From IMG/VR virus record IMGVR_UViG_3300010234_000012, positions 1-59,551 of that record: DNA of 59,551 nt; one strand, given 5' to 3'. Of the stretch, positions 1,916-59,551 are shown in pieces. The DNA comes from a virus. Taxonomy: Duplodnaviria > Caudoviricetes. The position numbers and the translations under genes are program-made. Below the pieces are notes generated by a model. The model searched no databases and was not told the DNA's origin. It saw only the letters and a program-made list of their open reading frames with translations. Within the stretch, counting starts at the first letter, position 1. Every line of letters starts with the position of its first letter.

Positions 1916-2174
1916 CTCAGAGAAACGTACCTTAGCCCAACTACGAAAGGGTAAGATTGCCCTTCGACTAGACCAAGAACACTCAGCTAAGCTGGCATTC
2001 ATTGCTAGGTACTTCGCTGGACACGTTGAAGGTAAGACTACAACCTATAAGGACGCTGCCAACGTAGCCATTGCCGCTATGTATGAGACTGTCCGAAGGC
2101 AGATGGAAGCTGAGGCCCAGAAACCAGCCGAGAATACGGAGTTCGTAGCAGAGGAGGCAAGCACTGATGAGTAA
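1887..2174 (+). CDS. Hypothetical protein, possibly DNA-binding
   Basis: GAGGA RBS, basic N-terminus. Confidence 0.65.
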   Translation: MNMPKKKLTSSEKRTLAQLRKGKIALRLDQEHSAKLAFIARYFAGHVEGKTTTYKDAANVAIAAMYETVRRQMEAEAQKPAENTEFVAEEASTDE

Positions 2175-4684: not shown

Positions 4685-4718
4685 TTGATCTTTTACTTGA
4701 TGCTATAGAATTTAATAG

Positions 4719-4747
4719 TTGACAAATAGATACACAGATGGTATAAT
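4719..4747 (+). promoter_or_regulatory. Consensus sigma70 promoter for replication/recombination genes
   Basis: TTGACA-17 nt-TATAAT with extended TG. Confidence 0.9.
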
Positions 4748-4776
4748 CAAATCGTAATTTGGATAGGAGGTTTATT

Positions 4777-5511
4777 GTGAGTGTTTTAGCTAGATTAAAG
4801 AGTTCAGTTGCCAAGCGGGGTGTGTTCGGTGTGGTTGCCGGAACGAGATTGAGTGGCAAGTCAACAGTTGCAGGTACATTACCAGGCAACACATTGTTAT
4901 TGCAGGCAAAGCTAATTGAGACTGGCAGCAGGTCAGCACAGAAGCTTGCCGATAAGCTAGGGAATTCCCTGGACATCGCGGAGTTCTCTACCCTTAAGGA
5001 TCTCTATGATGTGATCGAGGAACTGGGTGAGGATACCCATTACAAGAACATATACATTGACGGTATGTCTGCCATCACGGAGCTGAAGCATGATGAGCCA
5101 GAGATGAGAAAGATGATGAAGAAGAATGTATGGGATGCCTACCGTGAGATCGGAACCTCTGCTGCCACTATCCTATATGCAGCGAAGGGTTTGTCTGAGG
5201 AAACAGGCAAGAACGTATTCTTCACCTTAGCCCTGAAGGAGAAGTATGACAGCATGGGCAACCTAGTTAACCTAGACCCTGACATCAAAGGCAACATGAC
5301 ACTCGGCTCAATCAAGAAGATCTGCCCTGTTGTGGTGTGCCTTCGAGCTACCCTGGACGAGGACGGCAACACTGTGCGAGAGGTATTAACCGCAAGTGAA
5401 GGACCATTCTCGGCCCGAGTGGATGAGTTGATTGATGACGAGAACCCCGGAGTTTTGCCTGCTGACTTAGGCAAAGTCCTAAACCTACTCAACGGAGGAT
5501 CGAATGAGTAA
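4777..5511 (+). CDS. P-loop NTPase (AAA_24 / Sak4-like recombination ATPase)
   Basis: Walker A GTRLSGKST, Walker B IYIDG; GGAGG before GTG 4777; next to SSB-like gene and nuclease. Confidence 0.75.
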   Translation: MSVLARLKSSVAKRGVFGVVAGTRLSGKSTVAGTLPGNTLLLQAKLIETGSRSAQKLADKLGNSLDIAEFSTLKDLYDVIEELGEDTHYKNIYIDGMSAITELKHDEPEMRKMMKKNVWDAYREIGTSAATILYAAKGLSEETGKNVFFTLALKEKYDSMGNLVNLDPDIKGNMTLGSIKKICPVVVCLRATLDEDGNTVREVLTASEGPFSARVDELIDDENPGVLPADLGKVLNLLNGGSNE

Positions 5512-6193
5512 TGCATGGAACACATTGGCAGGTAAACTAGCTGCCGACAGCGACAACTTTAACACCCCAGTCAGTGGCGGCGCATACATGGGGATTGGCG
5601 AACACAGTGACGTATTCATCGAAGGCGTAGAGCGTGACGTGTCGCAGAAAGGCAACCCCTACATCAAGGTGATCTGGTCGGACGACGAGGGACGTAACCA
5701 CAACGACTTCGTGATGCTGTATGGCAAGACCAAAGAAGGTGGCCAAGGATTTCACTTCGCTATTCGCCGGCTGTTCAGCGGATTGATTGCAGATGAGACC
5801 TTACGCTTAGCCTACTTCAACAAGCTAGTCAACGACCCAAGCGGTGAAGGCTTCGACTCCCTCCGAGGATTGCGAGCATCACTTAAGATCGGCCAAGGTC
5901 GCAGTGGCTACACCGTCAAGGAAACACCGACCGGTGGCTACGTGATCTATGATGTCGAGGACAAAGAGAATGTGGTTGAGGATGTGTATGAGACCTACAC
6001 CGATGCAGTGGATGCTGCCAAGGAGATGGGCCTGAAGCGAGCCTATCCAGAAGTGAAGGCCATCAAGTTACCAAGCGAGGAGTATGTAAATGCAAACGAG
6101 GCCGCCGCTAGTTCTTTTGTCGAGGCAGGTAGTGCCGGTGCCAAAGGTGGAAACGTATCCAAACCCCACAATCTTACCCGTAGTTCTATCTAA
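5504..6193 (+). CDS. Putative single-stranded DNA-binding protein (DUF669-like)
   Basis: G.H.DVFIE.VE...SQKGNPYIKV.W pattern; position after AAA ATPase. Confidence 0.55.
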   Translation: MSNAWNTLAGKLAADSDNFNTPVSGGAYMGIGEHSDVFIEGVERDVSQKGNPYIKVIWSDDEGRNHNDFVMLYGKTKEGGQGFHFAIRRLFSGLIADETLRLAYFNKLVNDPSGEGFDSLRGLRASLKIGQGRSGYTVKETPTGGYVIYDVEDKENVVEDVYETYTDAVDAAKEMGLKRAYPEVKAIKLPSEEYVNANEAAASSFVEAGSAGAKGGNVSKPHNLTRSSI

Positions 6194-7298
6194 GCTAGGA
6201 CCAGGGCCGGTTGCCTTCGACCTGGAGACATCTGGCCTGGACCCATTAGCACCCGACGCAAGGATTCGCTCGATCGGTTTGGCCACGGAACGGCTGAGCT
6301 GTGCTATTGATCTTGAGGGGGCTGGGGATAATACCCTAGCTGTCCTCGGGCAATTCCTATCTAGCCGTCCAACGATCGCTCACAACTGGACGTTCGACAG
6401 TGGCTGGATTAAGCAGGTCACTGGGTATATGCCCAAGTATGGGATGTGTACCTATGCCGCCTACAAGCTGCTGGCTAACGAGGGTAACCTTGGACAGGTA
6501 TGGAACCTTAAGGATGCCATGACCAGGCTGCTAGGATGGCCCAACAGTAACGAGAAAGAGCTGTACGACTGGCTCAAGGCAAACAAGCTAAGTAAGGGTG
6601 ACATGCACCTCGCACCATGGGATGTCCTGGGTGAGTACTGTGCCCTGGATACTGCCGCAACATGGCAGCTACATAGGTACTTCGACAAGGAGCTGGACAA
6701 CTGGCCTCACCTCCGCTCATATATCAACGGCGAGGTGGCCACGATCTCACAGCTTGTAGTCGAGCAACAACTCCGAGGCATGAGCATCGACATAGAATAC
6801 CTGGAGGGATATGGTAGGGAGTTGGACGAGGAATGTCTCGCACTGAAGGCTAAGTTCTTTGAGCTGCCCGGTGTACTAGAGGCAGTCGATGCATTCAATT
6901 GTAGGGTGGCTGAGAAGATAGCCTCCAAGGAACCGAAGAGATTCAAGAAGGATAGCACGGAGACAGTAGCCTACATGAAGTGGGTGATCAAGTGTGCAGA
7001 GGCAGAGCATGTAAATCATTTCAACATAGATTCAACCCAGCAGTTGCAGTGGTTGTTCTTCGAGAGGCTTGGCATCACACCAAAACGATACACACCGAAG
7101 GGAGCACCAGCAGTGGATAAGAAATCTTTGCCCTACCTGGGAGCGCCGGGTAGGCTACTGAGTAAATACCGTAAGCTGAGGGATGAGAGGAAGTTCGTGA
7201 CAGCAACACTTAACGTACAGATGGACGGGGTACTGCATCCGATGCTGAAGGTTCCCGCAACAATAACCGGCAGGCTTGGAGGGGGTAGCAATGACTAA
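6090..7298 (+). CDS. polA: Family A DNA polymerase, N-terminal part (3'-5' exonuclease, thumb, start of palm)
   Basis: ExoI FDLETSG, ExoII AHNWTFD, ExoIII YCALD; FNIDSTQQL; ends TITGRLGGGSND*. Confidence 0.92.
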   Translation: MQTRPPLVLLSRQVVPVPKVETYPNPTILPVVLSKLGPGPVAFDLETSGLDPLAPDARIRSIGLATERLSCAIDLEGAGDNTLAVLGQFLSSRPTIAHNWTFDSGWIKQVTGYMPKYGMCTYAAYKLLANEGNLGQVWNLKDAMTRLLGWPNSNEKELYDWLKANKLSKGDMHLAPWDVLGEYCALDTAATWQLHRYFDKELDNWPHLRSYINGEVATISQLVVEQQLRGMSIDIEYLEGYGRELDEECLALKAKFFELPGVLEAVDAFNCRVAEKIASKEPKRFKKDSTETVAYMKWVIKCAEAEHVNHFNIDSTQQLQWLFFERLGITPKRYTPKGAPAVDKKSLPYLGAPGRLLSKYRKLRDERKFVTATLNVQMDGVLHPMLKVPATITGRLGGGSND

Positions 7299-7584
7299 CC
7301 TACTTCCCTGCGCTTGCGGGAGCGAGCCTAAACTTTTTAACCGTAACAGCCTAAACGTACACTATAGATGCCCTGAATGTAAACTAACACCTTGCACTTA
7401 TCACATCAAGGAAGAGTTTGCTAGGCAAGCCTGGAACCACGCCATGGAGCCAGTTGAGGATATGCGTAAGGTTGTTGAGGCGGCGGTAGAATATCGCAGG
7501 CGGTATCTTAAGTTTGGCGCTAAAGCCTCAATGATTGATTTAGTTAAGGCCCTCGCAGCTATGGAGGCAAGCAATGCTGAGTGA
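7291..7584 (+). CDS. Lar-like (restriction alleviation) zinc-finger protein
   Basis: LLPCACG...CPEC...A.QAWN pattern. Confidence 0.6.
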   Translation: MTNLLPCACGSEPKLFNRNSLNVHYRCPECKLTPCTYHIKEEFARQAWNHAMEPVEDMRKVVEAAVEYRRRYLKFGAKASMIDLVKALAAMEASNAE

Positions 7585-7921
7585 CGAGGAACTAGACAAA
7601 ATTCAGTCGAATTATGATGAGGGCTACTACGATAAACTTGCTATGTGGGCTGAGATTAGCCGCAAAGACACAACCAAGCTACTCATGGAAGTCAGGCGCC
7701 TACGCTCAAGGCTAGAGGCGGCGGATCGGTTGGCTGATGCATCGATGGAAATAGCATCCTGCCCGTATATATTAGAAGAGGCATCAATACCAAAGGCAGG
7801 TATTCAAGCAAACCCAGACCAAGTTGTCGGGATGATAAGTTGTGCCATGGTCAGACTAGATAAATTAGAAAAGTCAATCGAAGCATACCACAAGGCGAAG
7901 GAGGGGAGTGATGGAAATTGA
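7574..7921 (+). CDS. Mosaic hypothetical protein, paralogue of 55860-56240
   Basis: Shared MLSD / SRL.AADRLA.AS / EAY.KAKEGSD blocks. Confidence 0.8.
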   Translation: MLSDEELDKIQSNYDEGYYDKLAMWAEISRKDTTKLLMEVRRLRSRLEAADRLADASMEIASCPYILEEASIPKAGIQANPDQVVGMISCAMVRLDKLEKSIEAYHKAKEGSDGN

Positions 7922-8718: not shown

Positions 8719-9015
8719 ATGATGGGCAAGATAAAAGACCAGTATGAGAAATGGCAGCGTGAGATGTGGGAGGATGAGATTCACTTTGAGGCTGCCCCCA
8801 TCTACACTATCAACCTCCCTGAGGGAGTCTACATCAGCACACCCGAAGAGGCCGAAGAAGAGATTCGCAAACTCGATGAGGCGATACTCCGTAACATCGA
8901 ACAGATGGGTGAGACCCGTTGGAACCTTCCCCTTACTTGTGAGCATGAGTGGGTAAGCGCTGGGTTCAGCACTAGTACATATTTCTGCAAACACTGTGAC
9001 GTGGATAAGCCATGA
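8719..9015 (+). CDS. Hypothetical protein with C-terminal CxH...CxxC motif
   Basis: AGGAG RBS; CEHEW...CKHC. Confidence 0.75.
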   Translation: MMGKIKDQYEKWQREMWEDEIHFEAAPIYTINLPEGVYISTPEEAEEEIRKLDEAILRNIEQMGETRWNLPLTCEHEWVSAGFSTSTYFCKHCDVDKP

Positions 9016-9839
9016 GTAAGATCAACATACAAAACTTACCATCCTCCCCTAGGTTCATGCGAGCCTTTGTTGCGAGACCGAACCACAAGATTGTATACAC
9101 AGACTTCGACGCCTTGGAGTTTAAGGTGGCAGCACACCTCACCCAGGACAAGAGCCTGATGTCCCTGTACGGACCGAATGCTAAACCTAATGATGCTCAC
9201 CTGTTCAATGCAGCTAACATGAGATTGTTTGCCGACGAGATCCAGAAGTACTATAACCCCTTGGACCCCACACCTGAGGGCATCAGGCTGGCCAAGGAGA
9301 ACTGTCACACCGTTCGACAGATCGTCAAGATGGCGGGATATGCAATGAGCTACGGGGCACAACCGCCCAAGATATACGACGAGCTACGGACAGCAGGATA
9401 CGATGTCACACTCCGGGACGCTCACCAGATATTTGATGACTACTGGAACACCTACTCTGGTATCGTGCGGTTCACTCAGAAGCTCCAGCAGATGTGGCAA
9501 GACAATGGCAGGTGGGTTTACAACGGTAGGGGGAGACCGCTGTGTGTACCAGGGAAGTATAAAAAAGACCTGTATAATCGGGTAGTTCAGGCTACCGGCC
9601 ATGACTGCTTGATGAGGTATGTGGAGATTCTCGACCAAAGGTTAACGGGTTTAGAGGCGTACCCATGGGACGTGGACAAGCATGATGCAACCGCCTGGGA
9701 GGTTCATGAGGACCAAGCCGAAGAGGTTAAGGAGATGATGCAGGGGGTGTACCCGGCACTCAACAGCGAACTACAGTGGACAGTTGACATCACAGGTGAC
9801 GTTAAGATAGCCGATAACCTAGGGGAGCTAGTAGGATGA
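9012..9839 (+). CDS. polA: Family A DNA polymerase, C-terminal catalytic part
   Basis: Starts MSKINIQNLP; motif A DFDALE, motif B RQIVKMAGYAMSYG (Tyr at the 762-equivalent position), motif C KHDA. Confidence 0.92.
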   Translation: MSKINIQNLPSSPRFMRAFVARPNHKIVYTDFDALEFKVAAHLTQDKSLMSLYGPNAKPNDAHLFNAANMRLFADEIQKYYNPLDPTPEGIRLAKENCHTVRQIVKMAGYAMSYGAQPPKIYDELRTAGYDVTLRDAHQIFDDYWNTYSGIVRFTQKLQQMWQDNGRWVYNGRGRPLCVPGKYKKDLYNRVVQATGHDCLMRYVEILDQRLTGLEAYPWDVDKHDATAWEVHEDQAEEVKEMMQGVYPALNSELQWTVDITGDVKIADNLGELVG

Positions 9840-9860: not shown

Positions 9861-10646
9861 TTGACATTGATTCTATATGAGATCCGAGCCACCAAACGCC
9901 GTGTATCCTACCCGATACGCCTCGTCACCAAGGACGCCCTCGCCGATGCACAGGGTTTCCGCAGTGTGTACGGCTACGATACCGAGGTTGCCGACATGGT
10001 ATTAAGCACCAATAGCACCCGAGGTTTGATGGGTATGTCCATGTTCTCCGACGAGCTACTGATCGACATTGACGATGATTGGTCAGGTGCCGAAGCCTTT
10101 GCCGAAGAGATAGGCAACTACTCCTACAGTATGTATGACACCGGGGGCAGATCCATTCACTTCCACATCCCCATCGACCCCATGTACGGTGCCCATGTGC
10201 CAGCCGTCCAGAAACAGTGGGCTCAGGAGTACTGCCCCTGTGCCGACATGTCTATCTACCGCACCTCTGGTGTGTACCGATTGCCTGGAACCTACCACGA
10301 AAAGAACCCCGGCAAGTTCAAGGAGTTGATTGAGGTCAACGAAGGCGAGACCCTGACAGTATCATTGCCGCAGGGTATTGACTCGCTCAACAACATCGTC
10401 GCTGGTATCGCCGAGGACATCGACGAGGAAACAGAAAAGGATAAACTGAACCACCTATTGCTTATGCCTGCTAGGGAAGGTGGGCGTAACAACCACTTAT
10501 ATCGTATTGTAGCTAAATGTGCCACGCTTGGTTTTGAGTTTGGCCGAACCATGGAGATCGCATCCGTATGGAATCAGATGATGTCAAGCCCACCACAGCC
10601 GGAGACAGCAGTGGAAGCGACAGTGAAATCAGCCTACCTGAGATAA
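9861..10646 (+). CDS. AEP-type primase-polymerase with PriCT-like C-terminal domain
   Basis: IDID, TGGRSIHFHI, RLPGT; EGGRNN...WN...PP....V.SAY. Confidence 0.8.
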   Translation: MTLILYEIRATKRRVSYPIRLVTKDALADAQGFRSVYGYDTEVADMVLSTNSTRGLMGMSMFSDELLIDIDDDWSGAEAFAEEIGNYSYSMYDTGGRSIHFHIPIDPMYGAHVPAVQKQWAQEYCPCADMSIYRTSGVYRLPGTYHEKNPGKFKELIEVNEGETLTVSLPQGIDSLNNIVAGIAEDIDEETEKDKLNHLLLMPAREGGRNNHLYRIVAKCATLGFEFGRTMEIASVWNQMMSSPPQPETAVEATVKSAYLR

Positions 10647-11134
10647 GGTGGCCGAAAGGAAAAGACAACCTAGAGCTGCGCCGACGCATAGGTAAGGACC
10701 TACCCAAGATCTTGAGGGGTAGGATGCTGGCCGTGGACCCAGGTAGTAAGACCGCAGGGTGGGCGCTGTTCGAGAAGGGTGTGCTCGTGGACAGCGGGCA
10801 GTTTAAAGCGAGTAGCAGCATGCCTATCCATCGAAGGTTGCAGGTACTCTACGACAAGTTCACGGAACACCAAGCCCCAGACGTGATCTCGATCGAAAGG
10901 CTGAGAGGTTCTATGAGCCACGCCTATCTCTTCTGGGCAGTAGGCATTGCAGTGACTGCGGTGAGAGCGCCCATTATGCTTGAGGTTCCTATCAACGTGT
11001 GGAAGGCTACGGTGCCTAAAGACTATGTAAAGACAGACCAGGCAGATGCAGAGTCTATCGGTGAAGCCGTGGTGATGATCGCTAGAGAGATTGAGTTAGA
11101 AAAGAAAAACGAAAAGAAACATAAGAGGTACTAA
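10568..11134 (+). CDS. RuvC-like Holliday junction resolvase
   Basis: LAVDPGS..GWA, ISIE, DQADA..I. Confidence 0.8.
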   Translation: MESDDVKPTTAGDSSGSDSEISLPEIRWPKGKDNLELRRRIGKDLPKILRGRMLAVDPGSKTAGWALFEKGVLVDSGQFKASSSMPIHRRLQVLYDKFTEHQAPDVISIERLRGSMSHAYLFWAVGIAVTAVRAPIMLEVPINVWKATVPKDYVKTDQADAESIGEAVVMIAREIELEKKNEKKHKRY

Positions 11135-13750: not shown

Positions 13751-13950
13751 GTAATACTAAAGAACCCCCAAAGGGTGGACCGTGCAAGGTTCCTTGGTGG
13801 GAATACCAAATAAAAATGAAAGCAGCCTATGACACCCTACGAAATGCCATGGGAAGCTATACCTGGGATCACGACTTCGCCCACACGAAAGGTTTTATGG
13901 AAGGTTATATAGCAGGCATGGAGAAGGTAAAACGGGAGACAGATCTATGA
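13747..13950 (+). CDS. Hypothetical protein
   Basis: GTGA-coupled ORF. Confidence 0.6.
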   Translation: MSNTKEPPKGGPCKVPWWEYQIKMKAAYDTLRNAMGSYTWDHDFAHTKGFMEGYIAGMEKVKRETDL

Positions 13951-15128
13951 GTTATACTAAAGAACAACTAGAATTCTTACGGGAGCAACGAGCGCTGAGG
14001 AAGAAATGGCGCATCGTCACCCGTGAGTTCGAGGAGGAGTTCGGAGTCCCTAAGTCTGAGGATGCTCTCCGCAAAGCCTTCAAGAAATATGAGCTGATGT
14101 ATGAGCTGGACACCGACGAGTTCGAGATCCGTGAGCTACGATCCCTGAGGTCTGCGAGACGTACTGGCAGCAAGAATGCCCGCGAGAACCGTGTGATCTT
14201 GGACTACCTGGAGGACCGTGAGGAACTACTAGACGCTATCGAAGGCTACATCGAGGAGCTGGGCGAGATCAAGGTCCACAAGCCAGCCGTCAAACTATCT
14301 GCCCCATCGAAGGGCAAGCATCGGATGGTGATCGAGGCAATGATTTCTGATGTCCACTACGGCAAGCTGACGGATGAGTTCAACCTAGAGGTGTGCCGGG
14401 AGCGTATGAGGGAATTCACCAGCGTCCTGATCGAGGAGATCCGCAAGGAGTCCGAGCAGTACACTATTGAGAAGGTAGTGATTGCCTGCCTTGGTGACAT
14501 GATCGAGTCAGCTACCATGCATGGACTGGAGAGCGCGAAGGGTTGTGAATTCGGCAACAGTCGCCAGGTGGTAGAGGCAATTAATAGTATGTGGCACGAC
14601 GTATTGATGCCTGTAGGGCAGCTAGGTATCCCAGTGGAGTGTGTCGGAGTAGCCGGTAATCATGACCGCACCGAGGCCAAGCGTACCTACAACAATGTCG
14701 GCGAGGAGAACCTGACGTATGTGATCTACAACTCGCTCCAGATGCTGTGTGAACAAGCAGGCATGACACACGTTGAGTGGTACATCCCCAAGAACAGCTA
14801 CTACCTGTCCAATATATTCAGCGACACTGTGCTGTATGAGCACTATGACAACGCCAAGGCGAATACTGAGGTGGCTCTGAAGGCCCTACTAAACCGTAGG
14901 CAGGAGCAGCTTGGGATCATCGTCAACTATATGCGAGGTGGGCACTTTCACTCTCCCGTGACATGGGGCAGGGGGCATATCATCACCAACGGCTCAGTGC
15001 CCGGACCTGATGGATACTCCGATACCCTTGGGTTCAATAGCCACGCCAGTCAAACCATTAACTATTACATTGATACAGATGAACGTCCAACCACATTCTA
15101 CAAGAACTTTGTAGTCTACTTAAGATAG
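13947..15128 (+). CDS. Calcineurin-like metallophosphoesterase with N-terminal helical (HTH-like) domain
   Basis: SDVHYG, GDMIE, GNHDR, GHFH. Confidence 0.88.
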   Translation: MSYTKEQLEFLREQRALRKKWRIVTREFEEEFGVPKSEDALRKAFKKYELMYELDTDEFEIRELRSLRSARRTGSKNARENRVILDYLEDREELLDAIEGYIEELGEIKVHKPAVKLSAPSKGKHRMVIEAMISDVHYGKLTDEFNLEVCRERMREFTSVLIEEIRKESEQYTIEKVVIACLGDMIESATMHGLESAKGCEFGNSRQVVEAINSMWHDVLMPVGQLGIPVECVGVAGNHDRTEAKRTYNNVGEENLTYVIYNSLQMLCEQAGMTHVEWYIPKNSYYLSNIFSDTVLYEHYDNAKANTEVALKALLNRRQEQLGIIVNYMRGGHFHSPVTWGRGHIITNGSVPGPDGYSDTLGFNSHASQTINYYIDTDERPTTFYKNFVVYLR

Positions 15129-35480: not shown

Positions 35481-36011
35481 CTAGATAAAAAATGTTACTA
35501 TACAATAGCGCACACCTGATTCAACAGGCAATGCAGCATGGGCGTACACGTAGTTCGAGGGGAATAATACTAGATCCCCCGCCACGGGTTGGTATGTCCA
35601 GTCGAGGTATGGGTAAGTCAGTCCACCGCCCTCGAAGTCGTCGTTCATATAGATCAAACCGGATACCACTCTCGGCTTGTCGGGGGCATAGTCCGCATGT
35701 ACTCTGTATTCCTGCCCTGGTGTGTATCGTAGCATGTCACACATATCAGCGCCGCGCACATATACATGATCGTACTTCTCGCGGTATTGAGTAAGCGCCT
35801 CGCGGAACTCTCTCTGCACCTCCTTCATCGACTCGCCGATCTCAGGGAAATGCTTGGCAAGGGAGATGAGGTTGGCTCCTGCACTGGTCCTCTTGCCGGT
35901 TCCTCCGATGGTCTTACTCTCAATCCAGGCATTACCCACTTGGTTAACCTGTCTTATTAGCTGATCCCTGTCGAAGGTTGTCTTGTATACCTCTATCCCT
36001 GGAGGTGTCAT
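35481..36011 (-). CDS. 2OG-Fe(II) oxygenase (prolyl-4-hydroxylase-like)
   Basis: RY..GQ.Y..HAD, YMNDDFEGG.L, LFPS, H...PV.SG.RY. Confidence 0.9.
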   Translation of the reverse strand: MTPPGIEVYKTTFDRDQLIRQVNQVGNAWIESKTIGGTGKRTSAGANLISLAKHFPEIGESMKEVQREFREALTQYREKYDHVYVRGADMCDMLRYTPGQEYRVHADYAPDKPRVVSGLIYMNDDFEGGGLTYPYLDWTYQPVAGDLVLFPSNYVYAHAALPVESGVRYCIVTFFI

Positions 36012-40656: not shown

Positions 40657-42000
40657 TTATACAGTAAAATTATGGATAGTACCAATTGCGGCTGCGTGAA
40701 CAGCCTTAAGGGCACCATCACCTTCCATGTACGCGCGGATACGTCTTTCGTGTCCACCGTTAGAACTTGGATTCAAGTGAAACTTGGCTCCACCTTCAGG
40801 CTTAACGAACTCGAAGTCTCCACCAGAGTACTGAAGAACATCGCCTTCAGGCACAACGATAATGCGGTCTTTTCGGCAGAATTCGTCTGCTTCAAAAACA
40901 ACATCATTCTTACCATGGCGGTATCCTAGAGAATCCGTACCACGTCGGTTGTCTTTAACACTGTGGAAGCGTCGATCGACTTCACGGCTTTCAATAAGGG
41001 CATCAAGAGTTTCCCAAGCCATCATCGCCTGAGAGTACTTATATCGTCCCTGACCAACGGCGATCATGATCTTAGACATCAACTGTTGGAAGTCCTGAGA
41101 ATCAATCGGATTACCACCGGCATCACGACGAGTACCAGCCAAAGCACCACTCATAGTTAGGCCATGTACGGTACGTCCATCATCCTCACCCAAAGACTCA
41201 AGACCTACTAGATCTTCAGACGCGGTATTGTATTCTGAGATAGAACTCAAGTTAGGAATAGTGGTTTGGATGTCTCGGTAAACGCGAGAATCACTATCAA
41301 CAGTACCCACAGTAGCAACAGCGATTTTTACATCAGAGCTATCAAAGGCGCGAAGAGTAACGGTGTTAGCATCACGATCCTTAGATTGTACTGTGTAGTA
41401 ATCTGGAGTCGCCGCTGGAGAGTTAACAGTCTCCGCAGTACCAGCACTATTGTGCAAGGCAACCTTATCACCAAGCTCAATCCAACCGATGAAACCGCGA
41501 GCAGTATCGGCGGAAGATAGAGTTAGAACAAGATCGTCAGTTCCACCTAATGCAGCACTAGCAACCTGGCCGATACAGCCAGTACCGTCACCATATGCAG
41601 CACGAGAAAGTTGACGACTTAGGGCGATAGTCTTGCAGCGAAGTTCTTCGGCAAGAGGCTCACCATAGCGAGAGAAGTCACTCATCGCCTTAGAAATCAA
41701 GGTACGCTCAACGTCTACAGTCAACGCGAAGTCTTTGTAGTTCATTGTACCTTCGTTGATAGTCGCCTGAGATGCTGAAGGATACGCACCACCAGTTACA
41801 GGAACGAAACCTACAGCCGCAGCACCATATGCACTACGAACCAAGAATCGTTGTTCCCGACCTTCGGCTGGACCCTTCTTCTTCTTTTTAATCATTTCCC
41901 AAATTGGGGAATCTTCGGACAAGTTGTTGTATACACCGTTTTGTGATACAATTTTTAGATAGTTACCTAGGGTTAAGTCCCCAGCTACACCAGCTGCCAT
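40657..42000 (-). CDS. Major capsid protein
   Basis: Portal-scaffold-capsid order, 447 aa, strong RBS, highly-expressed codon bias. Confidence 0.85.
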   Translation of the reverse strand: MAAGVAGDLTLGNYLKIVSQNGVYNNLSEDSPIWEMIKKKKKGPAEGREQRFLVRSAYGAAAVGFVPVTGGAYPSASQATINEGTMNYKDFALTVDVERTLISKAMSDFSRYGEPLAEELRCKTIALSRQLSRAAYGDGTGCIGQVASAALGGTDDLVLTLSSADTARGFIGWIELGDKVALHNSAGTAETVNSPAATPDYYTVQSKDRDANTVTLRAFDSSDVKIAVATVGTVDSDSRVYRDIQTTIPNLSSISEYNTASEDLVGLESLGEDDGRTVHGLTMSGALAGTRRDAGGNPIDSQDFQQLMSKIMIAVGQGRYKYSQAMMAWETLDALIESREVDRRFHSVKDNRRGTDSLGYRHGKNDVVFEADEFCRKDRIIVVPEGDVLQYSGGDFEFVKPEGGAKFHLNPSSNGGHERRIRAYMEGDGALKAVHAAAIGTIHNFTV

Positions 42001-52038: not shown

Positions 52039-52067
52039 ACTATACCACACACTCCGATACCTGTCAA
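52039..52067 (-). promoter_or_regulatory. sigma70 promoter with overlapping palindromic operator
   Basis: TTGACA-17-TATAGT; ACCTGT-N12-ACAGGT at 52059-52082. Confidence 0.75.
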
Positions 52068-52137
52068 GGAAAAGATACAGGTTAGCCACATCACAGCGCA
52101 GCGAGGATAAGGATATCAGAGGGTTAGCAGAAAGTAC

Positions 52138-52166
52138 TTGACAACAGAAAAAATAGATGGTATAAT
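52138..52166 (+). promoter_or_regulatory. Consensus sigma70 promoter firing antisense into the minus-strand genes
   Basis: TTGACA-17-TATAAT with TG on + strand. Confidence 0.8.
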
Positions 52167-53020: not shown

Positions 53021-53049
53021 AGTATATCATCTGCCATATAACCTGTCAA
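53021..53049 (-). promoter_or_regulatory. sigma70 promoter with overlapping palindromic operator
   Basis: TTGACA-17-TATACT; ACCTGT-N12-ACAGGT at 53041-53064. Confidence 0.75.
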
Positions 53050-53421
53050 GGATAAAATACAGGTAGCACCCCCCTCCGTGGACCGCTACCTCACCCTAAC
53101 CTACTGGAATTATTGGACAATCAGGAGAGCCCACATCCAAAAAAAGTGACATACGGAGGATCCAAAAAAATGTGGAGGAGTAAATCATTAAAACCGGATG
53201 GGGGTATGGTCCCACTTACCCATGTCAGCTTTCTAACAGGGGTGAGATTACCCAATTTGAGGAGATTTGAGAGTGGGTGGGAGGGATATATACGTGAGGA
53301 AGTAACTAAGTTTACCCATTACCATACCATACATTCTGCCATACATGCACATAACGCATAACGAGGACGCCACTACAGCGCCCCCGATCGACTATCTTTA
53401 CATCACCCTCACTGGGTATAT

Positions 53422-55261: not shown

Positions 55262-55290
55262 CCTTTAACTATTAAACCTAGGAGACTAAC

Positions 55291-55503
55291 ATGAAGCTAC
55301 GATTTGCAGGGAAATGTGATGATTTGTTCGATGCCTCTATTATCAATGAAGAGGGAAAGGAAGTTAGTTTTTATGAAGGTTACCCCTTAGATTGCCTCGG
55401 TGATTGGGGTATGCTAAGTTTAACCATTGATATTAAAACAGGCAAGGTTGTTGGGTGGGAAGGTTTATCCACAGCAGATCTAAAGAGATTCTTAGGAGAC
55501 TAA
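55291..55503 (+). CDS. Hypothetical phage protein
   Basis: AGGAG RBS; flanked by 16-nt direct repeat. Confidence 0.75.
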   Translation: MKLRFAGKCDDLFDASIINEEGKEVSFYEGYPLDCLGDWGMLSLTIDIKTGKVVGWEGLSTADLKRFLGD

Positions 55504-55504
55504 C

Positions 55505-55849
55505 ATGATCGACTTAACTAATATGAGTATGCAGGAAATGTTCGACCGTATGTGCTACGGCCTGAAGTCACAGGACTGGGAGCCTTGTATGACAACTACT
55601 GGTATATGTGTATATGATGGTCCGAATAATACACACTGCGCAATTGGTTGGTTAGCACCAGGGCAATTAGGAGAAACTCGTAAAAGCTTTCATACCTTAG
55701 ACTTTGAAGGGGAGATTAGCACTAACCCTGATTTTAGGGATTTTTTGATGGAGGCTCAAAATAATCATGATATTAACTATGACTTCATGAGAAAGAACTT
55801 TAAACACCTTGCCACAAAGTATGATCTCAAGTGGCCCTTTAACGACTAG
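55505..55849 (+). CDS. Hypothetical phage protein
   Basis: C.Y......CAIG.L ...Q..HD pattern. Confidence 0.75.
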   Translation: MIDLTNMSMQEMFDRMCYGLKSQDWEPCMTTTGICVYDGPNNTHCAIGWLAPGQLGETRKSFHTLDFEGEISTNPDFRDFLMEAQNNHDINYDFMRKNFKHLATKYDLKWPFND

Positions 55850-55859
55850 GAGGCAAGCG

Positions 55860-56240
55860 ATGCTGAGTGATAAGGGATTAGAAAGATGTCCTAACTGTAA
55901 TACAACAGAGCCTCCAGAGTACAAGCATTTAGCTGGCGACCTTAAATTAGTATGCCTTTGTGGCTTTAGTACTCCTTGGTACCCTGTTACATGGAACAAC
56001 AAAAACGATGGCTTTGAATTGTGTGAAGAATGGTGGAATAAGCAATTTAATAAAGAGGCCGAAATAGCTCTGCTGTGCTCAAGGCTAAAGGCGGCGGATC
56101 GGTTGGCTGAAGCTTCTCGTTCCTACTTAAAAAGCAGAGAGCTACTGAGTGATCAAAAAGAAGTAGACTGGGATTTATTTGACGATTGGTGTGTGGCCCT
56201 CGAAGCATACCGCAAGGCGAAGGAGGGGAGTGATGCTTAA
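55860..56240 (+). CDS. Mosaic protein with Lar-like zinc finger, paralogue of 7574-7921
   Basis: CPNC...CLCG...WN plus shared constant blocks. Confidence 0.75.
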   Translation: MLSDKGLERCPNCNTTEPPEYKHLAGDLKLVCLCGFSTPWYPVTWNNKNDGFELCEEWWNKQFNKEAEIALLCSRLKAADRLAEASRSYLKSRELLSDQKEVDWDLFDDWCVALEAYRKAKEGSDA

Positions 56241-56682
56241 ACCTGGAGATGTATTCCGGCATGAGGATGAGAACGAAACCCTTGTGGTAGTATCAATGGG
56301 TGATGAGTTAAGGTATATGTGGTTGGAAGGTGGCGAAACAGGTTGGTTTTTCCGAGTAGCCGCAGCTGCTGCATTTGATCCTGACAATACTACAGTATTC
56401 GAGGATTACAATTATCTCGGCAACCTAAAGGATCTCAACCTTACCATCAACCCAACTCCGAGAGAGTATCAACCTGGAGATCGTGTTGTATTGAGAGATG
56501 ATTTAGTTCGAGGTGAGAATTATTCTCATACAGAAGGAGGGAGAGACGGCTATGTAACAGGAATGGCCTTCCCTGGGAGCACCGTGACACTAAGGAGTAA
56601 TGATTCGGTGGGATGGCGTATTGTAGGAGAGGGTTACCATTACCCAGATTCAATGTTCCTTAAACTAGCTGAAGGAGACTAA
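56233..56682 (+). CDS. Hypothetical protein (GD...YLGNL family)
   Basis: Strong RBS; PGDVF...YLGNLKDL. Confidence 0.7.
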   Translation: MLKPGDVFRHEDENETLVVVSMGDELRYMWLEGGETGWFFRVAAAAAFDPDNTTVFEDYNYLGNLKDLNLTINPTPREYQPGDRVVLRDDLVRGENYSHTEGGRDGYVTGMAFPGSTVTLRSNDSVGWRIVGEGYHYPDSMFLKLAEGD

Positions 56683-56683
56683 C

Positions 56684-56878
56684 ATGGATCAACAGTATAT
56701 GGCTCTGCGAATCATTCAAATGCGTAAGTGGCGGAATGCTCGACTACAGGATCTCGTTGCTGTTTGCCTAGCCGGTGAACTACACCTCAAATGGAGTGAA
56801 GTAACTAACCTAAATATCAACCAATGGCGTGAACTTCAACAGGAGGCCAACAATGATCAACTTATTACAACTCGGTAG
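56684..56878 (+). CDS. Hypothetical protein
   Basis: AGGAG RBS. Confidence 0.65.
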   Translation: MDQQYMALRIIQMRKWRNARLQDLVAVCLAGELHLKWSEVTNLNINQWRELQQEANNDQLITTR

Positions 56879-59302: not shown

Positions 59303-59551
59303 ATGTGTACTATTTACAGCTTCGATCGTAAGTCCTTTGAGGACAATTGGCAAGAAATTCAAACCACTATTCGAGAGGATGCCCTATACAATTCCGATGG
59401 ATTCTCCCTCATTACAGCCGGCGATACATCCCTCGATGCCACGGTGCTGCGAACCATGAACCTTGAGGCTATCCTCACTCAACTCAACAACGATGATACC
59501 TGGACCAGATTCTGGCTACATCTTCGCATGGCTACCACAGCAGCAGTAGGA
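59303..59551 (+). CDS. Class II glutamine amidotransferase, N-terminal part (continues at 1-598)
   Basis: MCTIY...YNSDGFS...HLRMAT; in frame with ORF 32-598. Confidence 0.85.
   Translation, partial: MCTIYSFDRKSFEDNWQEIQTTIREDALYNSDGFSLITAGDTSLDATVLRTMNLEAILTQLNNDDTWTRFWLHLRMATTAAVG
59497..59551. repeat. Terminal overlap identical to 1-55
   Basis: Exact identity. Confidence 0.97.

Follow-up and report, generated by a model that had tools for sequence, protein, structure and literature searches.

Two small genes of a tailed-phage genome share three near-identical DNA blocks set around unrelated segments

Three blocks shared by genes A and B

The window analysed here is the complete IMG/VR virus record IMGVR_UViG_3300010234_000012 (Caudoviricetes, Duplodnaviria), which is 59,551 nucleotides (nt) long and has a GC content of 48.6%. 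Two of its small open reading frames (ORFs), gene A and gene B (Table 1), share three near-identical stretches of DNA, blocks A, B, and C, set around segments that show no relation to each other. Both loci belong to a block of early and replication genes on the plus strand, which spans from ~53.1 kb through the record end to ~19 kb; the minus strand encodes the portal, terminase, head, and large virion proteins. Gene A is one of five small genes in a 1.7-kb insert that separates the two halves of a family-A DNA polymerase. The first-pass annotation, made from the letters of the DNA, had described the two loci as distant. This is true of the linear record, but on the circular map the genes are only 11,210 nt apart from start to start, within the one early-gene block.

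The copies of block A are identical at 21 of 22 nt, with a longest perfect run of 11 nt. Block B shows 2 mismatches in 37 nt (7704-7740 against 56077-56113) and can be extended to 40 nt at 37/40 identity (93%), with a longest perfect run of 22 nt, and the copies of block C agree at 35 of 36 nt (97%; longest perfect run, 23 nt). The coordinates and mismatch counts given in the first-pass annotation (1/22, 2/37, and 1/36) were thus reproduced. In 100 dinucleotide-preserving shuffles of the window, the expected count of each block pattern was 0.00, and the within-genome BLAST E-values of blocks A, B, and C were 2.1e-5, 2.3e-11, and 6.7e-12, respectively. With a 55-nt terminal repeat set aside, no other repeat within the window is as strong as the blocks. 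They are collinear, lie on one strand and in the same reading frame in both ORFs, and all copies are direct repeats. A third copy of block B was not found in the window, and its six frames held no third paralogue of genes A and B. An assembly artefact was also considered and ruled out: the 55-nt terminal overlap is longer than any of the blocks (22-40 nt), which moreover stand in frame within two intact ORFs.

Table 1 Positions of the two genes, their shared blocks, and the replication and recombination genes discussed in the text.
Feature	Position	Strand	Remarks
Gene A	7574-7921	+	115-aa ORF (aa, amino acids)
Gene B	55860-56240	+	126-aa ORF; start is the ATG 6 nt after GGAGG
Block A, copy 1	7563-7584	+	GGAGG (Shine-Dalgarno) and the first four codons of gene A, from ATG; shared with the last codons of the Lar-like gene, stop included
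Block A, copy 2	55849-55870	+	Shine-Dalgarno and start of gene B, immediately following the stop of the gene upstream
Block A, third and looser copy	2153-2174	+	3 mismatches; junction of genes 1887-2174 and 2167-2337
Block B, copy 1	7704-7743	+	encodes SRLEAADRLADAS, helix before the family core
Block B, copy 2	56077-56116	+	encodes SRLKAADRLAEAS
Block C, copy 1	7878-7913	+	C-terminal tail of gene A (EAYHKAKEGSD), with AAGGAGG and, at 7911, the start codon ATG of the next gene
Block C, copy 2	56200-56235	+	tail of gene B, with Shine-Dalgarno and the ATG of the next gene (56233)
Conserved family core	7760-7873	+	aa 63-100 of gene A, CPYILEEASIPKAGIQANPDQVVGMISCAMVRLDKL, inside its 'variable insert 2'
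Gene B, 'variable insert 1'	55871-56076	+	four-cysteine zinc ribbon (CPNC...CLC) and WWN helix, as predicted; GC 39.8%
Gene B, 'variable insert 2'	56117-56199	+	27-28 codons; unrelated, as far as detectable, to the family core and to the rest of the genome
Lar-like zinc-ribbon gene	7291-7584	+	directly upstream of gene A, overlaps its start
Split family-A DNA polymerase, N-terminal half	6090-7298	+	phrog_17 positions 669-975, E=6e-36
Split family-A DNA polymerase, C-terminal half	9012-9839	+	starts MSKINIQNLP; phrog_17 positions 978-1234, E=3.6e-34
Sak4-like single-strand annealing protein	4759-5511	+	phrog_124, E=1.3e-13
RuvC-like Holliday-junction resolvase	10568-11134	+	188 aa; phrog_159, E=8.2e-6; no Pfam hit
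Exonuclease, metallophosphatase type	13947-15128	+	phrog_284, E=7.5e-50

Between blocks A and B, gene A has 119 nt and gene B 206 nt; between blocks B and C, the lengths are 134-137 nt and 83-86 nt, respectively. These segments could not be aligned as DNA (z of -1.34 and -0.63 for local and 0.26 and -0.59 for global alignments against dinucleotide shuffles) or as protein (z of -1.11, -0.99, and -1.21 in a shuffle test). BLASTP of A against B recovered the two C-terminal blocks only, with a 17-residue gap between them (27/76 identities, E=2e-6). A MAFFT alignment suggested gene A to be gene B without its zinc ribbon, but the shuffle tests gave this no support. The statement of the first-pass annotation that the intervening segments are unrelated therefore stands, since neither the DNA nor the protein alignments were better than those of shuffled sequences.

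At the 24 degenerate residues that the blocks of A and B encode identically, the same codon is used 21 times (2/3 in block A, 9/11 in block B, and 10/10 in block C). Under genome codon usage, for which the 31 long ORFs of the window served as reference, the Poisson-binomial probability of this agreement is 5.2e-9. Because of the agreement in codons, the blocks are read as sharing a recent DNA ancestry, which is more than the conservation of peptides. This result bears out the in-frame mosaic of three constant and two variable parts that had been described in the first-pass annotation.

The identity between A and B opens at the Shine-Dalgarno sequence GGAGG of the two genes and ends precisely at the start codon (ATG) of the gene that follows. 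The genes upstream and downstream of A are unrelated to those of B. Therefore, the homologous unit is one gene cassette, reaching from the ribosome-binding site (RBS) to the next start codon. Similar junction sequences were found at other genes of the window. GGAGGCAAGC occurs three times, against 0.06 expected, with its third copy at the junction 2153-2174; the initiation sequence AGGAGACTAACATG heads four genes (55277-55293, 55491-55507, 56670-56686, and a minus-strand gene ending at 42000), among them the gene for a putative major head protein; and GCACTGATGAGTAR, in which the stop overlaps the start, joins two neighbouring gene pairs (2160-2174 and 2323-2337). Among 3321 pairs of junctions, 11 share at least 12 nt, compared with 0-3 in 20 random-position controls, of which some had counts raised by overlapping windows. 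Stereotyped junction sequences are a general habit of this genome. Block C, at 36 nt, is much longer than the other shared junctions (13-17 nt).

The CPY-core family and the make-up of gene B

A search with a joint profile of A and B in a set of 1.84 billion representative proteins gave 21 proteins at E≤1e-3: A, B, and 19 others. Eighteen of these 19 were fetched, and P0004 (1094 aa), which matched via repeated coiled-coil stretches, was left out. The motif CPY..DEA..PKAGI.A.P.QVVG..S.A..R.RKA was present in 18/18 fetched homologues. A hidden Markov model (HMM) of the family was built from 21 homologues with A and B excluded; P0014, which bears two copies of the core, was left out of the alignments and of the HMM. 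Gene A matched the family HMM with E=8e-28 (92.9 bits) over aa ~27-110, a region that spans block B, the core, and block C. Judged by this match, gene A is an ordinary member of a widespread, unnamed family of small phage proteins.

The family is laid out as a helix, the core CPY..DEA..PKAGI..QVVG, a second helix, and a tail. In every member, conservation is highest in the stretch that lies between the parts corresponding to blocks B and C. The counterparts of the blocks themselves are weakly conserved in the 18 homologues, and the N-terminal regions are highly variable, with cysteine-rich ribbons, helices, and long extensions. In the first-pass annotation, the segment between blocks B and C of gene A had been counted as a variable insert, and a lack of insert diversity among homologues had been named there as speaking against the proposed scheme. 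For this segment, a conserved core in all 18 homologues is what we found, and it cannot be called variable.

None of the 18 proteins had a relevant hit in the Pfam copy searched, and one family member matches phrog_1273, an annotation without a function. The family profile had no solved relative at E≤1. The family is present in four IMG/VR contigs, and a search of the narrowed family alignment against prokaryotic genome contigs gave 103 pattern matches and no relatives. In viral contigs, genes with the CPY core lie after a DNA polymerase and an HNH-like ORF (L008), after a helicase (L007), and before an SNF2-type helicase (L005); the domain usually adjoins replication genes. A single-sequence AF2 (AlphaFold2) model of gene A was all-helical and of low confidence, with a predicted local distance difference test (pLDDT) value of 67.3, and a Foldseek search of this model against the PDB returned nothing at E≤0.001, only generic helical hairpins. 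A weak match of the family HMM at 10538-11131 (E=0.47) was considered as a third paralogue and rejected; it is the C-terminus of the RuvC-like resolvase.

Gene B fell below the reporting level of the family HMM at E≤10, even with filters off. In the alignment, it lacks the family core and has 27 unrelated residues in its place. Gene B was a singleton in all protein searches. The ESM Atlas structure of residues 4-67 of gene B, when compared with clusters of the Lar family, gave template-modelling (TM) scores of 0.72-0.75 by target and 0.39-0.42 by query. As a lead from this structural comparison, the N-terminus of gene B may be a Lar-like zinc ribbon. Like the Lar family (PF14354, phrog_599), both the gene upstream of A and the N-terminus of B have a ribbon of two cysteine pairs followed by a W-N helix. 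However, the scores lie under the Pfam cut-off, and gene B has no sequence-profile match, with no PF14354 hit at E≤1 in Pfam. The gene upstream of A (7291-7584) matches phrog_599 'Lar-like restriction alleviation protein' with E=9.9e-6 and PF14354 with 19.3 bits (E=1.4e-3; cut-off, 28.6). We also considered gene B as a paralogue or fusion of this upstream gene and rejected it (z=1.55; 8% of shuffles were equally good). The single-sequence AF2 model of gene B (pLDDT 45.5) was too poor for use. As far as the sequence allows, gene B can be described as a chimera in which a putative Lar-like ribbon is followed by the flanking parts only of the domain of gene A. The position of the two genes among replication genes and the Lar-like fold suggest early host-takeover or replication-accessory roles for their products.

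We found no close relatives of A, B, or the polymerase in IMG/VR, and the exact 22-nt block cores gave 0 and 0 matches there. The block peptides gave 573 pattern matches and no confirmed relatives in the JGI metagenome contigs. In GenBank phages, blastn of both neighbourhoods returned a single 129-nt match only, and tblastn returned none for A and one match with E=0.4 for B. A word-indexed search of 5.8 billion proteins recovered A and B only as themselves, and no further block-carrying sequence was found among the 1.84 billion representative proteins. The DNA polymerase is ~25% identical to the polymerases of SPO1-like and Gordonia phages, and the nearest polymerase, which is 39% identical, lies on a 1.6-kb metagenome contig. 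The lineage is thus almost unsampled, so that the lack of relatives says little.

Origin of the pair

We consider it probable, with some reserve, that A and B are a pair of chimeric paralogues produced by recombination within the phage lineage, with no purpose-built diversification device. The pair shows the abrupt switch from near-identity to non-homology, with identity at synonymous sites, by which mosaic genes are recognised. As a first step, an A-like cassette, from the Shine-Dalgarno sequence to the next start codon, would have entered the early-gene array at 55.8 kb by copying or recombination. Two internal segments would then have been exchanged with the frame kept, whether through template switching, through illegitimate joins, or through annealing at short homologies. 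In gene B, the N-terminal helical segment would have been swapped for a Lar-like zinc ribbon and the family core for ~27 unrelated codons, and the edges of A would have been retained, namely the RBS with codons 1-4, the helix that precedes the core, and the tail at the C-terminus together with the RBS and ATG of the following gene. Selection would have kept in-frame products only.

Functions that could catalyse such annealing appear to be encoded by the phage itself in the form of the Sak4-like annealase, the exonuclease, and the RuvC-like resolvase. The first-pass annotation had supposed a system without a dedicated recombinase. PHROGs scans, which covered 89 ORFs of the window, agree with this in that no reverse transcriptase, integrase, or invertase was found among the 89; a qualification is called for by the general recombination proteins, the Sak4-like annealase, the exonuclease, and the RuvC-like resolvase. 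Sak4 is described as a single-strand annealing protein, and such proteins are tied to phage mosaicism in two papers (PMC5928155, PMC5499656). According to De Paepe et al. 2014 (PMC3945230), phage annealases drive the formation of mosaics at short and diverged homologies, intragenic segments of ~100 bp are often exchanged in phages, and the minimal efficient pairing segment is 23-27 bp for Red-beta and 31-34 bp for RecA. The perfect runs of 22 nt in block B and 23 nt in block C lie at the lower edge of the published annealase pairing range. Therefore, further exchange between A and B would be possible but inefficient.

The mosaics described in PMC3945230 resemble the present pair in their sharp transitions between near-identity and non-homology, in the ~100-bp intragenic segments, and in the presence of a phage-encoded annealing protein. 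They differ in that A and B stand in one genome, 11 kb apart, whereas phage genomes are noted there to be usually without internal repeats; in addition, the patches of identity are only 22-40 nt here, and the Sak4 family differs from the Rad52-like proteins that were tested there. The pair is an instance of a known process, phage sub-genic mosaicism at short homologies, and by itself it shows no new mechanism. Its notable features are that the mosaicism lies within one genome and that the patches are sharply bounded and identical at silent sites.

If A and B are such a chimeric pair, they would offer a clean, statistically well-supported case of sub-genic mosaicism in which one phage genome contains both genes and the breakpoints coincide with gene junctions and with the limits of a conserved protein core. 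The pair would further show how replacing modules in frame can give rise to new small early proteins, here through a zinc ribbon joined to a borrowed helical scaffold. The comparison also brings out a widespread, unannotated phage domain, CPY..DEA..PKAGI..QVVG, among replication genes.

Several points weigh against recombination within the lineage as the origin of the pair. Two in-frame, non-homologous replacements in one small gene are an unparsimonious history. With two copies only and no related genome found, we infer rather than observe that the transfer ran from A to B, how many events there were, and where the ribbon and the 27-codon segment of B came from. The differences inside the blocks comprise five non-synonymous and three synonymous changes, and the blocks are GC-rich (55-62%) compared with the AT-rich variable parts (40-46%); both observations would also fit a constraint at the nucleotide level. 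Finally, the Sak4-like, exonuclease, and RuvC-like assignments come from PHROG profiles only, with Pfam matches below the cut-off or absent. The Sak4-like protein, for instance, matches Pfam AAA_24 with E=3.2e-5 and 24.3 bits, just under the cut-off of 27.

It is unlikely that A and B were instead acquired separately from a population pool of mosaic alleles, the blocks being conserved linkers for passive homologous shuffling of modules by co-infecting relatives. In this shape it would be a milder version of the scheme of the first-pass annotation. The highly variable N-terminal regions of the 18 fetched homologues, the nature of blocks A and C as junction elements of a kind that recurs in the genome, and the sparse sampling of the lineage would all suit such a pool. 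However, no other block-carrying sequence was found with the exact 22-nt cores in IMG/VR or with the block peptides in the JGI metagenome contigs, and the family shows a conserved middle with weakly conserved flanks, which is the reverse of a design with conserved linkers and variable inserts.

In the modular theory of phage evolution, conserved 'linker' sequences stand at gene boundaries, and in T4-type phages promoter/stem-loop cassettes are found. Blocks A and C are like these linkers in lying exactly at gene junctions, with similar junction sequences at other genes of the phage. In contrast, block B is intragenic, and the recurrent junction motifs elsewhere are of 13-17 nt, against the 36 nt of block C.

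The blocks might also be kept identical as nucleic acid in genes that are otherwise unrelated, with blocks A and C serving translation initiation or coupling and block B being bound by a regulator, a small RNA, or a nuclease. The conserved synonymous sites together with the balance of five to three differences, the GC-rich islands formed by the blocks, and the strong Shine-Dalgarno sequences and start codons of blocks A and C, with initiation sequences that recur at other genes, are in line with such a role. Nevertheless, it is difficult to see how cis elements acquired independently would yield three collinear blocks in the same frame. In six windows of 48-60 nt, no stable or shared RNA fold was detected (z of -0.16 to +1.23), no promoter- or terminator-like site was seen inside the blocks, Rfam had 0 matches in the window, and block B has no third copy. 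We regard this explanation as quite improbable.

There is a small chance that the GC-rich blocks are kept as short homology arms, at which the Sak4-like annealase would swap modules, for instance the zinc ribbon or the CPY core, from one locus to the other or with co-infecting relatives. Were this so, the phage would have a recombineering-like, cassette-level diversification of early host-takeover proteins without a dedicated enzyme.

The first-pass annotation had gone further and proposed a scaffold that swaps sub-gene modules, that is, a protein diversification system. We give very little credence to an active, dedicated scaffold of this kind, in which the blocks would be homology arms for repeated module swaps between the loci or with donor cassettes. 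The geometry of arm, insert, and arm, with arms of 36-40 nt, does resemble a recombineering substrate, and an annealase is encoded by the phage. However, only two loci exist, the genome contains no donor cassettes or further copies of the blocks, and no other block-carrying sequence was found; moreover, one of the 'variable' modules is an invariant family core, the perfect runs are only 22-23 nt, and the 89 scanned ORFs include no reverse transcriptase, invertase, or integrase. Diversity-generating retroelements and invertase shufflons likewise combine a constant scaffold with differing internal segments. Unlike them, the present loci have no reverse transcriptase, template repeat, or invertase, and the segments are unrelated and of unequal length, not mutagenised or inverted copies. 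Mosaic Ea22-like genes had been named as the nearest analogy. As a general analogy, mosaic phage genes are apt, and the lambdoid Ea22/Ead genes (PF13935) are likewise small early-region phage genes of mosaic make-up, but neither A nor B matched PF13935 at E≤1. The sole link is a language-model neighbour with a score of 0.82 (in a cluster that is 44% PF13935), which is below the lead threshold of the tool.

The view that A and B are old paralogues that simply diverged, and that selection on the protein alone preserved the blocks, is scarcely credible: BLASTP does align the C-terminal halves, but the use of the same codon at 21 of 24 sites (P ~5e-9) is incompatible with saturated divergence and excludes it, no similarity remains outside the blocks, and B lacks the family core.

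Surrounding genes and other repeats of the window

The break in the DNA polymerase is placed between the TGRL and N(I/L)QN(L/I)P motifs. The insert showed no recognisable intein, intron (0 Rfam matches), or homing endonuclease. The 39%-identical N-terminal half on a metagenome contig (L009, 188-1405) ends at the same point (…TGRCAGGQG and stop), and a different small ORF follows it. Since this homologue stops at the same point, the split is old, and the gap in the polymerase appears to be a hot spot of small-gene turnover.

The RuvC-like ORF overlaps the end of a primase-like gene at 9861-10646 (PriCT_1, E=4.9e-5). A 2-oxoglutarate- and Fe(II)-dependent (2OG-Fe(II)) oxygenase-like gene on the minus strand (35481-36011; phrog_61, E=3.8e-26) stands among the virion structural genes.

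The direct terminal repeat is exact over its 55 nt (1-55 and 59497-59551), which leaves a unique length of 59,496 nt. It may reflect overlapping assembly ends of a genome that is circular or circularly permuted, or it may be a genuine short terminal repeat.

Two near-consensus promoters of the sigma-70 type (TTGACA, 17 nt, TATAAT) were found at 4716-4747 and 52135-52166, both with the extended stretch AGATGGTATAAT. The former precedes the Sak4-like gene; the latter is located at the switch region where transcription diverges. A repeat of 24 nt, ACCTGTCAAGGAWAARATACAGGT, whose ends are inverted (ACCTGT...ACAGGT), occurs at 52059-52082 and 53041-53064, 982 nt apart. Its copies flank the region of divergence between the minus- and plus-strand transcription units, and from its sequence the repeat looks like an operator or hairpin site.

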